A stretch of 64,000 bases of DNA from contig CAWAUM010000005.1 of assembly GCA_963785235.1 (NCBI GenBank), positions 544,001 through 608,000 of the forward strand, written 5' to 3'. The stretch is from an uncultured delta proteobacterium. GTDB taxonomy: Bacteria; Desulfobacterota; Desulfomonilia; UBA1062. Positions 17,732-33,068 of the stretch are shown piece by piece. The position numbers were made by a program, and so were the translations under genes. Within the stretch, counting starts at the first letter, position 1. Every line of letters starts with the position of its first letter. Under the pieces are notes generated by a model. That model was given only the letters and a program-made list of their open reading frames with translations, was not told where the DNA came from and did no database searches.

Positions 17732-19592
17732 GAGACCGTTGAAAAAGCTGTTTTTGAAACGAAAGATTTCCCGGTACTTTGGTTAGTTGGTTAGTGTACT
17801 ACCGATAGTCGCAGATTTTGGGTTTTATCGGACCATTCTTTGGTTTCTTATCTCAACCTTCATATCTTTCTCTTCATGCAAAGCCATAATTAGCTATCTT
17901 TCCGATGTTGTGTACCATGCAGTACAGCAACCACTGGATATTCACCTTGATCTTGCCCCTTACTGTGAACCGATCAAGCCGTTTGTGGGTGCGGATATTT
18001 GCGAACACCGGCTCTACTATGGCCATCCTCTGTGGGTAGATCCTGCGTCCCTTCTCACTCTCGATCTTCTCTATCATAAGCTTGGTGAGGTTAATACCAT
18101 CCGAGCCGATGGGAATGTTCAAGGTCTTTGGTCCACGGCCATTGCCATATATGCACTTACCTCTTAACATACAACCGCTGCAGTCCTGTTCTTGTGCACC
18201 ATATATTCGATAGAGCGTACCAGTACAGCGATGGCTCTTTACCTTAAGACCTAGTTTTTTGCCGTTGGGGCATTCGTACTGATCGCTCTCCTCATCATAG
18301 TGGAAATCCTCCAATGCATAATGGGTCCTGATCGAGCGCCCCTTCCTTCCCTTAAACCGAGGATCTCTTGTACGGAATCTCTTATCAGGTATGTAGGCAT
18401 CCATCCCTTCATCCATACACTTCTGGATATTCGCTTTGCTGTGATAGCCGCTGTCAGCAGCGAACATCGCCCCATTGAAGTAATCCCCGGGAAGACCTAT
18501 CTCCTCCACGTTTTCCTTGGCCCCATCCACCATCGGAGGAACAAGGTCATTATCATGGCCAGTACCGAATGCCTCCGCATGTACGATCACCTGTGTCTTG
18601 GAGTCCACTAGCGCTTGACCGTTATATCCCTGGATTGTCCCATTGGATGTCACCATTTTCGAAGACTCGTTGTCTGTGATATTGCTCTTGATCTCCTTTC
18701 CATTCACCCCGAGACGCTCCCCGTTCTCCTTAAGCCATGCCTCGATACGATCAGCCTGCTTCTTCAGTTTTTCGATCTGTCTGCATCGGTAGGAACGATT
18801 ATCAGGGGGAGTTGAATCATCATCTTCCTTCCGGTCTTCCTCTTCCTGTTCTGTCAGCAGTTCATTCACCTTCTCTTCGAGCTTCTGACGCTTCGCCCGT
18901 AACTCAGAAACCGTCCTGCTCCACTGCGGAGATGCATTGCATGATAGCTTGCACCCGTCCAATGCGAAGAACGTTCCCCCGAGTAGCTTCATCTCTTCGC
19001 AAACAAGCAGTACATCCCGAAACAGCGGCAGAATCTCATCCTTCATGGAACTCACGAATGTGGAGATCGTGCTGTGGTCAGGGTACTGCCCGCAAGAAAG
19101 CGCCATGAATACTACATTCTCATGGCAGGCCTGTTCGATCTTCCTCGATGATGTCAGACCCCGTGAATACCCCAGCAATATCACCTTAAGCAGTATCCGT
19201 GGATCGTATGCACGCCGTCCTGTCTCATCATTCCTGTATTTTTCATCGAACAGGCTCATGTCCATACGCTCATCCACAAGCGTGTAAATCGCATACTCCA
19301 GACTCCCGGGCATGATCTGTTCCTTCAACCCTACCGGTATCAGCATGTCCTGTGCGTATGTGTAAGGTTTATACTTTGCCATGGTACCCTCTCGCTTCAG
19401 GAATAGGGAGATTCAGAAAGAAATCTTTCCCGTTAAGACAATAACCTTATATCACATAATATATTGATAATAAAGATCTAATTTACTTTTTTATGAAATA
19501 ATTGATCTGTTTAGGTCTTCTGAACTCGGATTCTTTTTTAAATAAATGATCTGCTTCTATCCTTTGCGTTAGGAGGCTTTTTCAACAGTTTC
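17732..19592 (-). mobile_element. IS1182-family insertion sequence
   Basis: TIRs GAGACCGTTGAAAAAGC (17732-17748) / GCTTTTTCAACAGTTTC (19576-19592), 15/17 identical; flanked by GCA direct repeat. Confidence 0.9.
17874..19382 (-). CDS. IS1182-family DDE transposase
   Basis: GRRAYDPRILLK, SSRKIE, PDHSTI, ALDG, GYNGQ, ADSGY, VEPVFANI. Confidence 0.95.
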   Translation of the reverse strand: MAKYKPYTYAQDMLIPVGLKEQIMPGSLEYAIYTLVDERMDMSLFDEKYRNDETGRRAYDPRILLKVILLGYSRGLTSSRKIEQACHENVVFMALSCGQYPDHSTISTFVSSMKDEILPLFRDVLLVCEEMKLLGGTFFALDGCKLSCNASPQWSRTVSELRAKRQKLEEKVNELLTEQEEEDRKEDDDSTPPDNRSYRCRQIEKLKKQADRIEAWLKENGERLGVNGKEIKSNITDNESSKMVTSNGTIQGYNGQALVDSKTQVIVHAEAFGTGHDNDLVPPMVDGAKENVEEIGLPGDYFNGAMFAADSGYHSKANIQKCMDEGMDAYIPDKRFRTRDPRFKGRKGRSIRTHYALEDFHYDEESDQYECPNGKKLGLKVKSHRCTGTLYRIYGAQEQDCSGCMLRGKCIYGNGRGPKTLNIPIGSDGINLTKLMIEKIESEKGRRIYPQRMAIVEPVFANIRTHKRLDRFTVRGKIKVNIQWLLYCMVHNIGKIANYGFA

Positions 19593-28904: not shown

Positions 28905-29162
28905 CTATCGTTGTTTTTGCCTCCAATAGCTGTTGTAATGCGTAGGGCAACTGCATACTTTACTGAAGCCAATACTTGCTCGATACGGACATTCTTCATT
29001 TATTTTAGATTTCAAGAATAAGACATAAGGTCCATTAGCATAGCTAACTTCACACATCTCACGTTCGCCACACTTGCCAGATTCAAGGCAGGAGAATTCG
29101 TGTTGACACTTCGTTGTTAGGGTTAAGATCTCTTTAGGGACATAGATAGACATATTTACCAT
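28905..29162 (-). CDS. Small Cys-rich hypothetical protein
   Basis: Seven Cys (CQHEFSC, C....C, CPY, CSCP); AAGGGGG RBS. Confidence 0.55.
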   Translation of the reverse strand: MVNMSIYVPKEILTLTTKCQHEFSCLESGKCGEREMCEVSYANGPYVLFLKSKINEECPYRASIGFSKVCSCPTHYNSYWRQKQR

Positions 29163-29616
29163 CCCCCTTTTCTTACTTTTCTCTGTTAAGTATTATCTTT
29201 AAAACACCAGGTAAAACCAATCCGGCAAATTTGCCTCCCTTCATTTATAATTTTGACATAAACCTTCTGAATCTAGGGGTTCATAGTGGTGTAATGAAAA
29301 CAAAAAGGCATACAAGGAATCATTCAAAAGAGACACTCAATAGCATCAACAAAGAATCTATATGCAAATAATTAGACTTCTTAAAAATACTCGGTCACCA
29401 TGAAAATCAATAGCAAGGGTTGAAATAAAATACGAAAGTATAGCCATAGGGAGAACCATAGATTTCGCGCCAGGATCGGTACTTTATCCTCTAGCCTGAA
29501 AGGCATAGATCTCGTTACAGATCCAATACACACTCATTAGAAGCGCTCTAGCCAAAAAAACTAAGTTCTTTTAGATTGTGAACCGCATTTCCTCAAATTC
29601 CATCTATTAAGTAAGC

Positions 29617-29958
29617 ATGAGGAAAATACTGTTAGTAAGTGATGATAAACGCACCCAGCTACTTCTCAATGAAGAGTTTGAAGATGGGTATCAAGTATTG
29701 ACTGTGTCTAATAGGAAAGAAGCGCTTTCCCTATTAGCAAAAAATTCTAAAAAGCCAGACCTCGTTATCCTTGATCTCAGCGTACCTGAAAAAAGTAGGA
29801 TTGATACTCTTGGCCATATATTAAAGCAAAAGTTTAAATTACCCGTGATTATATTTCCAGCTTATAGCATCTTTAGGAAAGACACATTGAGAACAGAAAT
29901 TGATACATACAGGGTTAGATCTTCAGATATTTCGGCGCTAAGAAAAAAAGGTCCATGA
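29617..29958 (+). CDS. Degenerate single-domain response regulator receiver
   Basis: KILLVSDD, PDLVILDL, LPVIIF; conserved Thr/Ser and Lys positions altered. Confidence 0.7.
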   Translation: MRKILLVSDDKRTQLLLNEEFEDGYQVLTVSNRKEALSLLAKNSKKPDLVILDLSVPEKSRIDTLGHILKQKFKLPVIIFPAYSIFRKDTLRTEIDTYRVRSSDISALRKKGP

Positions 29959-30339
29959 CCTGATATAGAGCTGAAGTGTAGATCATGTGTCATACCTGAC
30001 ACTCATATCTGGCCTGATTTCATTATAGATTATATTTTGAGATTATCTGTTTTCAGTCCTTACAAAAGTGTCCGTCTATCGCAGGGATCAACGCTATAGG
30101 CAAACCGATGATTATGGTTAAAAGCATTCAGTAATCAGAAACCACTGTTCATGGCAGAGACTGTTGCCCATTAAAAGGTTCTGTCAATGAGAAAATAGTT
30201 CTCCCATTACAAGAGCCGTTATCTCTTGCAGAGTTTACCATTGCGCCAGCACGGACGATTCTCCTTCTCTCCGATCTCGCATCAGTTATTTCTTTTTCTT
30301 GGTTACGATTCATTTATCCTGAACCGCACCAGTCACCCA

Positions 30340-30660
30340 TCGGGATCAAGGTTGCCAGGTATGGCTGTTGCGAAGCGGAGAGACATAAGGAATCTCGGAG
30401 CGAAGAAACAGCCATACCTGCGTAACCCCTGGCCTGATATCCAGGCCCCAGAAAATCGTCTGTTCCCTGGTATGTCCAACTTATTTCTCAAAACCCTTGG
30501 CTCTATGTCCAAACTCGTATGGTTCATATCAGAGGCGGATCAGAAAGTGATTATCCTTCCCTGCTGAATAATCTTAAATTTAGAGGCATAGGGTGGTGGA
30601 TCAATCAAAAAACAGTGGTTGTCGGCCAACAGTCTCCCCGAACTCACCACCCCAGCCATT
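30340..30660 (-). ncRNA. Predicted bridge/seek RNA of the IS110 element (boundaries approximate)
   Basis: GGGUGGUG...CACCACCC stem enclosing matches to both target flanks; 30356-30420 contains matches to the donor junction. Confidence 0.65.
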
Positions 30661-31686
30661 CTATGAGAACAAGGCCTCCTCCTTGAAAGGAACCTGATCT
30701 CTCATGATGTAATAGCAAGCACGGGAAAGCTTGTTTGCCAGTGCCTTCCTCGCAATAATAGGATTCGTTTCCCGTGACTTGCGCTGATAGTACGCATTTG
30801 CCCGTTCACTGTAGATTCTGGAAAAATTACTAGCTTCCATAAATGCCCAGGCCAGATACTTGTTCCCGTTCTTTTTGTTGCCAACCCCTTTCTTCTTTCC
30901 ATTGCTGGTGTGCACACTGGAGACACACCTGCAGTACGAGGAAAAATTGCCAACACTAGGGAATCGGGATATATTCCCTACCTCCAGCATGATGGTCATC
31001 GCCAGGATATCTCCGATACCGATGACAGTAAGCAGATTCTCAAACCCAGAGCGTATCTTTAAAACCTTCCGCACTGCCTTTTCTATGCTCGTTATGTGGT
31101 GGCCCAGGAAATCAACGATGTTCGTACTCACCTTCCCAGAGAACAACAGATGTTCGTCGGTGAAGATCTTCTTCAAATCATCAGGGCACAGCTTCTTGAT
31201 CCCTGCTCCATTTATTCGCATCCCCGTGTTCCGTTCAATCATTGATTGGCATGAGAGGAGATTGGCTGTCCTGTGCCGCATCAAAAACGCTCTCTTCCTC
31301 AGCAGATCTCTTACCGGTCTGTCTTCCTTGGGGTAGATGTACCCTTCTGGTAGAATACCAAGGATCAGAAGTTGAGCTAGCCAGAATGCATCATGACGGT
31401 CGTCTTTATACTTGATCCCTTCATATTGTTTGATCGCTGACGGATTCGCTAAATGTAAGCAACCATATCCCGCTTCCATCAACCCGTCGACCAGCCAGTA
31501 CCAGTTGTATGTGCTCTCAACAACGATCCCCTTCACCTCATCATGGTAAGGCTCCAACGCCTGTAGTATCTCACCAAGGTCATTATTGTGCCTATTCTGG
31601 TAAACCCTTCTTTTCGATTCACCTTCCATGATTCCCATGTATGTGTTCCTTGAATGCAGATCCAACCCAACATACAGCTCTCCCAT
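30661..31686 (-). CDS. IS110-family DEDD recombinase
   Basis: VGLDLHS, VVESTYNWYW, KDDRHDA, GIG, RF.S...F.SY, TSNGKKKG, LANKLSR. Confidence 0.95.
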   Translation of the reverse strand: MGELYVGLDLHSRNTYMGIMEGESKRRVYQNRHNNDLGEILQALEPYHDEVKGIVVESTYNWYWLVDGLMEAGYGCLHLANPSAIKQYEGIKYKDDRHDAFWLAQLLILGILPEGYIYPKEDRPVRDLLRKRAFLMRHRTANLLSCQSMIERNTGMRINGAGIKKLCPDDLKKIFTDEHLLFSGKVSTNIVDFLGHHITSIEKAVRKVLKIRSGFENLLTVIGIGDILAMTIMLEVGNISRFPSVGNFSSYCRCVSSVHTSNGKKKGVGNKKNGNKYLAWAFMEASNFSRIYSERANAYYQRKSRETNPIIARKALANKLSRACYYIMRDQVPFKEEALFS

Positions 31687-31975
31687 AAGATGCCTCCTCT
31701 TTCTTTTTATCCGTTAACGGCTCTTATGATTTGTAGAGTGAACCTTTTAGATGGCTATCAAAAAACCTTCACAGGATGGAACGTGATAAAAATCGACATC
31801 ATAGAATGCTCTACGATGGAAGATCTTTTATCGGGGCTTGTGTTTTGATGGTTTAAATTTGGTGGTTTTTGAGATCGCCGGACTTTTTCAACAGACTCGC
31901 ATGTAACATATATTCATACTGTAAATTATCTATACTAATACCCATTGTGTTTATGAGTATGTCTTGAGTATTCCA

Positions 31976-32647
31976 TTAAAGCAGCATGAAAGGGCTCATG
32001 GGCAACCATTTTTTCTTCCATCCATCAGAGGCGATCTGTTTAGTCAAAGCTGGAGGTATCTTTTTTGAAATAACAGCCCTTTCTGCAGGAGGAAGGTTAT
32101 ATAAGAGGAAAGGAACCACAAGATAATCCGGTACTGCGTGCTTGTGGATATATTCATTGAAGATTCTGCTAAGCCTTGTCTGTTCTCCATATCCGATTGC
32201 CATATCTATTTTGTCAGTGGTGAAATACTTTTCTTCAACCTCTATATGAGGATGCCATTTCTCTTTAGTGTCACCCAATTTTCTATTTAAGACTCCAAGG
32301 TGTTCTCCAAAGCTCCTACTTGACATCGGTTCTTCCATGGTTTTCACAATGCTATCAAGGTCATTCATCATATCCTGATGCTGCGTTCTCAGCATATCAA
32401 ATGGTACTTCAGGCATTCTGTATTTCAGATATGGATATACGATCTTGTCTTCGAGATGATGGTGACCGTTCATTACTGAGATGAGGCTTTTCACATAACT
32501 GATAAATCCCCTGTTTTTTGATTCATTGATATGTCTTGCCAGGCTGGAAGAATGACTGTATCCAAGAGCAACATAGAGACCTCGTGTAATCACAGAATGG
32601 ATACGGATCAGGTCTTTTCCGATATCTGGTGTGTCACTAATGAACAT
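31976..32647 (-). CDS. Hemerythrin/HHE cation-binding domain protein
   Basis: RIHSVITRGL, HHHLED, QH, HIEVEE. Confidence 0.75.
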   Translation of the reverse strand: MFISDTPDIGKDLIRIHSVITRGLYVALGYSHSSSLARHINESKNRGFISYVKSLISVMNGHHHLEDKIVYPYLKYRMPEVPFDMLRTQHQDMMNDLDSIVKTMEEPMSSRSFGEHLGVLNRKLGDTKEKWHPHIEVEEKYFTTDKIDMAIGYGEQTRLSRIFNEYIHKHAVPDYLVVPFLLYNLPPAERAVISKKIPPALTKQIASDGWKKKWLPMSPFMLL

Positions 32648-32657
32648 ACTCTCTCCT

Positions 32658-32999
32658 TCATTCAGTTCTATCAACCTGTTCATTACTTAATAAGATCTTG
32701 GTAACCCGCATCAGTGACATTTTTGATTTTACAGCACTATTAAGCACCTCATATTCATGCCTACTTATAGGTCTGATCCTATCTTTTATCTGAAATTGGT
32801 TTGTACGAAAGCAGTACGGACAGGTTACATCGACTGCTGTAATGTCATAGCTCAATCCCGCCCCTTCCTTCTGTAGATAAGACATGCCATTGGATGGGAT
32901 AGTGGAGGAGTTGAATGACTCGACTGGAATGATTTCGTTGCATCCAGGATAACGACATTTGAAAACATGATAATTGCGATTATTTTCAATACTATTCAT
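32658..32999 (-). CDS. Zn-ribbon hypothetical protein
   Basis: CRYPGC ... CPYC; poly-G RBS before ATG 32999. Confidence 0.55.
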   Translation of the reverse strand: MNSIENNRNYHVFKCRYPGCNEIIPVESFNSSTIPSNGMSYLQKEGAGLSYDITAVDVTCPYCFRTNQFQIKDRIRPISRHEYEVLNSAVKSKMSLMRVTKILLSNEQVDRTE

Positions 33000-33068
33000 A
33001 ACCCCCCCCCTTCTGTGTGTTGAAGGCCCAGTAACCATCTTTTTAACCTTCCAGTTTCACCGACAGTA

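Follow-up and report, generated by a model that had tools for sequence, protein, structure and literature searches.

A putatively RNA-guided IS1111-group insertion sequence in an IS1182-type terminal repeat

The window analysed here is a stretch of 64,000 nucleotides (nt) from an uncultured delta proteobacterium of the Desulfomonilia (GenBank assembly GCA_963785235.1, contig CAWAUM010000005.1, positions 544,001 to 608,000), and positions are counted from its first letter. On its minus strand, from 30167 to 31758 when boundaries are drawn as in the family, lies a 1,592-bp element of the IS1111 group within the IS110 family of insertion sequences (IS). Very probably, this element was placed in the terminal repeat of an IS1182-derived miniature inverted-repeat transposable element (MITE) by RNA-guided site-specific recombination. 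The reading is carried by two arms of a predicted guide RNA that change together with the flanks of the element, by the identity of the target, and by the positions of the element ends.

Directly after the stop codon of the recombinase gene, the minus strand encodes a stem-enclosed loop in which a 5' arm, GAGACUGU, is complementary to the right flank of the element and a 3' arm, GUUUUU followed by UG, equals the left flank (junctions are given in element orientation). An initial annotation, made from the letters alone, had quoted the stem GGGUGGUG/CACCACCC (30652-30645/30598-30591) as well as GAGACU (30636-30631) and GUUUUUUGAU (30613-30604), and all of these are present. It had read the last string as a match of 10/10 to the flank it called right. 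Six of these bases do match the flank, whereas the remainder consists of the conserved UG and of an AU that equals the first two bases of the element and belongs to a conserved AUUGG scaffold. The handshake guides of IS621 likewise match bases of their own element, according to the available parts of two reports (PMC11208158; PMC13626964).

Homologous loci were drawn from 52 genomes of the same order, from 80 loci of genome contigs and from 80 loci of metagenome contigs, and about 160 relatives were compared, the genome set serving for discovery and the independent metagenome set for validation. Guide arms were anchored on invariant columns and compared with the junctions of each element itself. 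Rows were removed before counting for anchor failure, regardless of their scores: those with an unrecognisable loop (L019, L062, L067, L082, L087, L095, L101) or a misaligned one (L184, L219, L222), those in which the match to the right-end motif was doubtful or a tandem copy (L043, L052, L086, L090, L112, L179), those in which the left-end match was not the true end (L063, L093, L099), and the duplicates L016 (of L028) and L036 (of L008). For L106, L108 and L111, which have one extra base in the left end, the left register was moved by one base.

In nearly all relatives the first 75-90 nt past the stop codon are of one build, namely a stem, GA(A/G)CC, a variable arm, a G(G/U)UGG hairpin AACC(A), a second variable arm ending in UG, AUUGG and the closing strand of the stem. 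The outer stem shows compensatory changes at 8/8 pairs (RNAalifold). Among 68 sequences, 86.7% of the cells were paired compared to 70.4% after shuffling, with 165 versus 58 double changes, values reached in 0/500 shuffles, and controls in which the stem was slid along the alignment gave only 34-53% pairing.

Clearly, both arms follow the flanks of their own element. In the genome set, the 5' arm agreed with the reverse complement of the right junction at 6.33 of 14 positions in cognate combinations and at 4.47 in non-cognate ones (54 unique pairs), and the 3' arm agreed with the left junction at 7.56 versus 5.17 of 14 (43 unique pairs). Similarly, the metagenome set gave 7.09 versus 4.62 for the 5' arm and 7.91 versus 5.64 for the 3' arm, each over 47 unique pairs and 14 positions, and in all four comparisons 0/10000 permutations reached the observed value. 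The informative positions are the eight core-adjacent bases of the 5' arm and the five core-adjacent bases of the 3' arm. The target loop is therefore real, and its covariation with the flanks lies above chance. As the initial annotation had held, a guide loop 3' of the gene can be read against the flanks, and the fold and covariation among homologs that it had named as a check bear this out. At the sequence level, the element displays what defines a seekRNA or bridge RNA, a structured RNA whose two arms correspond to opposite target strands, and the arm with the top-strand match stands 5', as it does in the IS1111 members treated in the available sections of PMC11187229.

The target can be identified, as judged by comparison of repeats: it is a terminal inverted repeat belonging to a MITE of 146 bp that derives from an element of the IS1182 family. 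This MITE forms the right flank of the window copy, has terminal inverted repeats of about 19 bp and occurs in several genomes of the genus, and its terminal repeat (up to 2 mismatches) was found in 23/52 genomes. In one of them (G009, locus L136), two such repeats 1,846 bp apart bound a 493-aa transposase with the domains DUF772, DDE_Tnp_1_6 and DDE_Tnp_1, which scores 302.7 bits with the IS1182 model NF033551 (cut-off 270). Also, an intact, unoccupied IS1182 copy lies in the window itself, 12 kb from the IS1111-type element, and its end repeats differ by one base per arm from the ideal target of the guides. With NF033551 transposases found between matching end repeats, the target is an IS1182-derived MITE repeat and therefore the main claim of the initial annotation, that the guide points to an IS1182 terminal repeat, holds. 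The window copy occupies the left repeat of its MITE, and in another MITE the right repeat is occupied by the 86%-identical relative L008. Relative to the repeat, both copies point the same way; in L008 and its duplicate L036 the homology ends at the target. As the two copies lie in different MITE ends, they stem from independent events. Among the papers listed by a literature search, none dealt, by title or abstract, with IS110 members targeting IS1182 inverted repeats.

The ends of the element were placed from the family. Throughout the family, the left junction reads flank-TG-ATAAT.. in 87/91 rows, and the right junction reads ..AATGGG-TG-flank in 92/103 rows, the others having CG (5), CA (2), TA (2) or GT (2). 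For the window copy, the left junction is GGTTTTT-TG-ATAGCC and the right one AATGGG-CA-ACAGTCTC; for L008 they are GGAGTTTTT-TG-ATACCC and AATGGG-CA-ACAGCCTC; and a solo right end of the window type (L146) reads AATGGG-CG-ACAGTCTC. The dinucleotide past AATGGG together with ACAG(T/C)CTC continues the uninterrupted IS1182-type repeat ..TTTTT-C(G/A)-ACAG(T/C)CTC in the same orientation. Such an uninterrupted repeat, G(A/G)CTGT(C/T)(A/G)AAAAAC, was found at 50 places in 18/52 genomes, and a copy in the genome of the window reads GAGACTGTTGAAAAACCTC (G000:C12:337). When L008 was rejoined at the ends of the family model, 18/19 positions were identical to the partner repeat of the same MITE, and the window copy gave 14/19 with its partner repeat compared to 11/19 for the rejoining implied by the initial annotation. 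The family alignment, the same-type insertions and the uninterrupted repeats together therefore give an element of 30167-31758 plus one dinucleotide, equal in length to the 30163-31756 of the initial annotation and displaced from it by four bases. The predicted circle junction of the family model is AATGGG, then TG or CA, then ATAGCCATC. TTGAC is present in the right end of 77/78 relatives, and joining of the ends gives TTGAC(A/G/C)-N17-GATAAT in 47/78, a junction promoter that is known in the family from the Discussion of PMC11187229. In the window copy this promoter is degenerate; the hexamer is GATAGC if a distance of 16 bp from TTGACA is taken, or ATAGCC with 17 bp. The coordinates of all features are collected in Table 1.

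Table 1. Features of the IS1111-group element, its target and the neighbouring IS1182 copy in the window
Feature	Position	Strand	Basis or detail
IS1111-group element body	30167..31758	-	family junction layout; same-type insertions L008, L146; reconstruction against partner repeats
Dinucleotides flanking the element	30165-30166; 31759-31760		30165-30166: TG on +, CA in element orientation; 31759-31760: CA on +, TG in element orientation
Left end	31740..31758	-	ATAGC extension and subterminal inverted repeat CCATCTAAAAGGTTC
Right end	30167..30187	-	TTGACA, -35-like, 30187-30182; subterminal inverted repeat GAACCTTTTAATGGG 30181-30167
Recombinase gene, 341 aa	30661..31686	-	Pfam, NCBIfam, profile match to IS621 8wt6
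Target-binding loop, predicted RNA	30588..30657	-	fold, stem compensation, covariation with flanks
Loop outer stem	30653-30645 / 30599-30591	-	
Loop 5' arm GAGACUGU, 8 bases	30636-30629	-	then UG 30628-30627
Loop inner hairpin	30630-30618	-	
Loop 3' arm GUUUUU, 6 bases	30613-30608	-	then UG 30607-30606, AU 30605-30604
Second stem-enclosed loop, same build	30463..30536	-	family conservation; 3' arm AAGGGUUUUG 30498-30489 resembles left flank
Putative right-end guide AUGGGUGAC	30332..30340	-	inside block conserved at 97% across genera
Clade-specific hairpin, 14-bp perfect outer stem	30356..30420	-	-31 kcal/mol, z -6.8
Outer part of interrupted left MITE repeat	30157..30166	+	GAGACTGT plus TG
Remaining MITE	31759..31898	+	inner left repeat, body, right repeat 31880-31898
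Intact IS1182-family element, not occupied	17732..19592	-	NF033551 311.9 bits, cut-off 270
IS1182 transposase frame	17889-19364	-	open for 512 aa
IS1182 element end repeats	17732-17750, 19574-19592		GAGACCGTTGAAAAAG.., GAAACTGTTGAAAAAG..

By its sequence, the protein encoded in the element is a recombinase of the IS110/IS1111 type with DEDD and Ser catalytic residues. It scored 38 bits with PF01548 (cut-off 29) and 52.4 bits with PF02371 (cut-off 21.3) of Pfam, and 162.2 bits with NF033542 of NCBIfam (cut-off 140). A phmmer search with the single protein against the PDB gave no match and a family profile was needed; the profile of 28 relatives matched the recombinases of IS621 (8wt6, E 1.7e-16) and ISCro4 (E 1.5e-15), so that Pfam, NCBIfam and the profile agree with the type assigned in the initial annotation. 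D9, E57, D96 and D99 are invariant or nearly so in the 28 relatives, S261 is aligned with the nucleophile S241 of IS621 in the profile alignment, and none of the five catalytic residues is missing. Comparison with IS1111 recombinases was by length, 341 aa falling within the range of 330-350 aa. Non-coding DNA amounts to 72 nt before the start codon and to 494 nt from the stop codon (30661) to the right end (30167). A long non-coding region downstream of the gene characterizes the IS1111 group in the available sections of Siddiquee et al. 2024 (PMC11187229); marks of the group, among them subterminal inverted repeats of 7-17 bp, are also given in those of Durrant et al. 2024 (PMC11208160), and CCATCTAAAAGGTTC and GAACCTTTTAATGGG lie in this range. 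The best named relative comes from a metagenome-assembled genome of the Desulfomonilia, and a metagenome scan for nearer relatives of the window copy yielded at best 66% protein identity and did not enlarge the clade of the window copy and L008. Besides this single full copy, the genome contains a 67%-identical relative on another contig that is probably degenerate. This second IS1111-type element (L002, G000:C12:143884-147735; 67% identity at the DNA level) has a frame that appeared as two overlapping pieces in tblastn, and its gene is probably broken.

The remainder of the non-coding region was compared in the same way. A second stem-enclosed loop has a 3' arm that follows the left junction over 79 unique pairs (6.59 versus 5.28, 0/10000; core-adjacent base 0.91 versus 0.32) and a 5' arm that follows the right flank weakly (4.83 versus 4.17 of 14, reached in 0/10000 permutations). 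It was considered as a donor loop and rejected, since its arms match neither element end and follow the target flanks weakly. Over 103 rows with 55 unique pairs, the 9-mer AUGGGUGAC reads, in the same sense, as the five terminal bases of the right end followed by the core and by the two flank bases next to it, and its flank positions match at 0.87 versus 0.29 and at 0.89 versus 0.70 (0/10000); in the window copy it departs from the junction only at the core, where it has UG compared to CA. We read it as a putative family-wide right-end guide with a two-base handshake. The hairpin at 30356-30420 is confined to the nearest clade, made up of the window copy, L008, L009, L010 and L014. Its CGCAAC is kept whatever the right junction, bases 3-8 of the left end recur in its AUGGCU/AGCCAU part, and the one variable position agrees in 3/4 types (C, U, U versus G, A, A/T in the left end) and disagrees in L008, which gives a weak hint that it might act as a left-end guide. 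Among the listed papers from 2025, none treated donor recognition in IS1111 by title or abstract.

We can describe how insertion would proceed on this evidence. The region immediately past the recombinase gene would be transcribed into an RNA that the recombinase binds, and this RNA is predicted to fold such that the stem encloses both guide arms. In the right half of the target, (CA)ACAGTCTC, the top strand would pair with the 5' arm GAGACUGU(UG); in the left half, GTTTTT and the core, the bottom strand would pair with the 3' arm GUUUUU(UG), the geometry of this pairing and the order of strand exchange being inferred. The AU next to the 3' arm could act in a handshake-like manner through its match to the first two bases of the element, and the separate segment AUGGGUGAC would read the right end together with the core and the two flank bases adjoining it. 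The DEDD/Ser recombinase would then exchange strands at the dinucleotide, which is TG in almost all relatives, and joining of the ends into a circle would set TTGACA and a -10-like hexamer 16-17 bp apart.

Several observations weigh against RNA-guided placement as described, or against its details. The relatives are kin, and the permutation figures therefore overstate their independence. Neither a circle junction nor an empty site nor a contig spanning the element was found in the contigs of X1-X4, which are fragmentary DNA, and among the 24 sequencing runs listed there was no RNA run with the element. The genome carries a single copy despite near-perfect free targets, and the promoter formed by joined ends is weak here, with GATAGC or ATAGCC in place of GATAAT; the window copy may be barely active. 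The right end is followed by CA in two of the three insertions of this type and by CG in the third, and the left dinucleotide is TG in both copies that have one. With these unlike dinucleotides there is no direct repeat, and the crossover position therefore rests on analogy with the relatives and on the uninterrupted repeats. No family-wide left-end guide was recognised, since exact matches of at least seven bases between the non-coding region and its own left end were inconsistently placed. Finally, the identity of 11/11 between 30361-30371 and the circle junction of the initial annotation is only partly explained, five of the bases coming from the clade-conserved CGCAAC motif and six matching the left end.

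Identical cores would not yield TG on the left and CA or CG on the right. The UG that is fixed in both arms could pair with TG, CG and CA if G-U and G-T pairs were permitted, in which case two G-T pairs would be present in a TG/CA heteroduplex, a line of thought drawn from three insertions. Only tentatively do we suggest that a UG fixed at the core slot of every guide in this family lets a donor with a TG core recombine with IS1182 repeats having CA or CG cores, leaving unlike dinucleotides at the junctions, and that the long 3' RNA forms a three-part guide composed of the target loop, a looser target-like loop and the right-end guide with its two-base handshake. If true, the three-part guide would give a function to the 'long seekRNA' left open by Siddiquee et al.

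The window copy might also be a fossil that was once RNA-guided and is now immobile, the guide matches recording its last insertion, and we regard this as rather unlikely. Such a state would be in line with the one full copy and with the near-perfect free targets, which occur both in the same genome and in the window, with the -10 bases ATAAT of the relatives reading ATAGC here and ATACC in L008, and with solo and truncated copies in sister genomes. However, the reading frame is intact with its five catalytic residues, and L008 is also intact, with stem, guides and ends kept. Contigs from other samples carry near-identical pieces, and in one of them the match starts exactly at 30157 and is preceded by a different flank, which fits a further insertion in the same repeat.

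It is very improbable that the anatomy proposed in the initial annotation, as a whole, describes the element better. There, the element spans 30163-31756 with CT as its core (AG in element orientation), the target is GAGA-CT-ATCAAAAAAC, the circle junction is ATGG-CT-GTTGC, and 30361-30371 and 30408-30416 are two donor guides. The strings on which this was built are in place, with GAGACTGTTGCCCATT starting at 30157, ATGGCTATCAAAAAAC starting at 31751 and ATGGCTGTTGC lying at 30361-30371 on the plus strand; no dinucleotide other than AG recurs at both junctions of the window copy, GCAACAGCCA is kept in L008, and 30361-30371 equals that circle junction at 11/11, for which our own arithmetic gives an expectation of about 2e-4 when a single 11-mer is sought in both strands of 500 nt. 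However, the repeat of AG fails in L008, which has AC on the left and AG on the right. The TGAT before the supposed left end is common to relatives with unrelated targets, and CAAC (CGAC in L146) runs on exactly as in an uninterrupted IS1182 repeat. In none of the 52 genomes did the predicted empty site turn up as a terminal repeat: its motif G(A/G)CTATCAAAAAAC occurs at two places, this junction and a site in another genome (G017:C4) that belongs to no end repeat and to no IS junction. Relatives with GGGTGAC at the right junction also conserve CGCAAC. The donor loop read at 30361-30419 is not supported either, as the two proposed guides pair with each other, AUGGCUGUU and GCAACAGCCAU being the two strands of one 14-bp stem. 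A junction with a CT core has no -10 element 16-17 bp from TTGACA, as read off the right-end sequence, only the family-model junction having been scored computationally. The predicted target GAGACTATCAAAAAAC and the circle junction GGGCAAC-AG-CCATC are thus unsupported, and the family alignment, L008, L146 and the uninterrupted repeats place the crossover four bases away.

That the protein alone picks the target, with the loop-flank matches due to chance or hitch-hiking, is hardly credible, since both arms covary with both flanks in two separate sets and related IS1111 members have been proven experimentally to behave otherwise, according to the available sections of Siddiquee et al. 2024 (PMC11187229).

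Returning to RNA-guided placement, the element can be compared with known systems. With the IS1111 seekRNA elements ISEc11, ISPa11, ISKpn4 and ISPst6, as described in the available parts of Siddiquee et al. 2024 (PMC11187229), it shares the downstream non-coding region, the subterminal repeats, a recombinase of about 340 aa, a short stem-loop RNA with the top-strand match 5', and the joined-end promoter. In contrast to these, its protein is not close to any named member checked, its target is an IS1182-type end repeat, and its long non-coding region contains the second target-like loop and the putative right-end guide, both known by comparison only. The bridge RNA of IS621, as far as the available parts of PMC11208160 and PMC11208158 describe it, is alike in the DEDD plus Ser recombinase, in two arms per loop on opposite strands, in a two-base core and in two-base handshake-like extensions past the core. 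In contrast to IS621, the predicted RNA lies 3' of the gene with reversed guide order, the window family has TG, not CT, as its core and a conserved UG in its predicted RNA, and the donor side shows no simple second internal loop. IS4321 and IS5075 of the IS1111 family reportedly target terminal repeats of Tn21-family transposons. By analogy with this case, known only from the title of Partridge and Hall 2003, an IS1111 member that prefers the terminal inverted repeat of another mobile element would have a precedent, although the host there is a Tn3-family transposon and not an IS1182 element or MITE.

The known principle of RNA-guided recombination is left unchanged by the element. What it offers is a single genome with a recombinase, a predicted guide RNA, the target and an uninterrupted copy of the target, from the branch of the bridge/seek-RNA recombinases that has been less studied, IS1111, and a case in which one IS family would parasitise the ends of another, IS1182 and its MITEs. 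From about 160 relatives, rules for the clade can be proposed, namely 8 plus 5-6 guide bases around a TG core, a fixed UG, two-base handshake-like extensions and a right-end guide, and the element draws attention to a tolerance of unlike cores.

Some further observations concern the relatives and the surroundings of the target. In L085 and L094, two target-type loops with differing guide arms stand in tandem after the gene and may represent a natural two-guide array; the first loop of L085 has the arms ..UAUUGGGGU / AAGACGUG and the second ..CAAUGGGGU / AAGACUUG, and it is the second that suits the right flank of L085 better. The solo right end L146 (G035:C14:318300-318700) comprises 34 nt and adjoins the tip of an IS1182 repeat. 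A left-end fragment of 260 nt (L011/L147, G036:C23) is 90% identical, ends in ATATCC and has an unrelated left flank. In a copy of the L009 type (L139, G045:C142), a tandem repeat of its own target GAGACC-TG-ACCCCGGG stands in the flank, which leaves a free site beside the occupied one. An Rfam scan of 29000-33000 with E up to 1 gave no relevant family, the sole match being to the plant snoR41, outside the element (31988-32083, minus strand; 29.1 bits, below the gathering score of 40; E 0.03); it falls inside a bacterial coding region and was taken as chance. Beside the MITE, at 30060-30145, lies a member of a second repeat family, ..GATGATTATGG..AATCAGAAACC..GGCATG.., which also occurs in the same genome (G000) at C5:159185, C9:11600, C9:11801, C13:48925 and C3:499808. 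An element with a 60%-identical recombinase (L012) is inserted in this second repeat, and its guide arm UAACAUG matches it.

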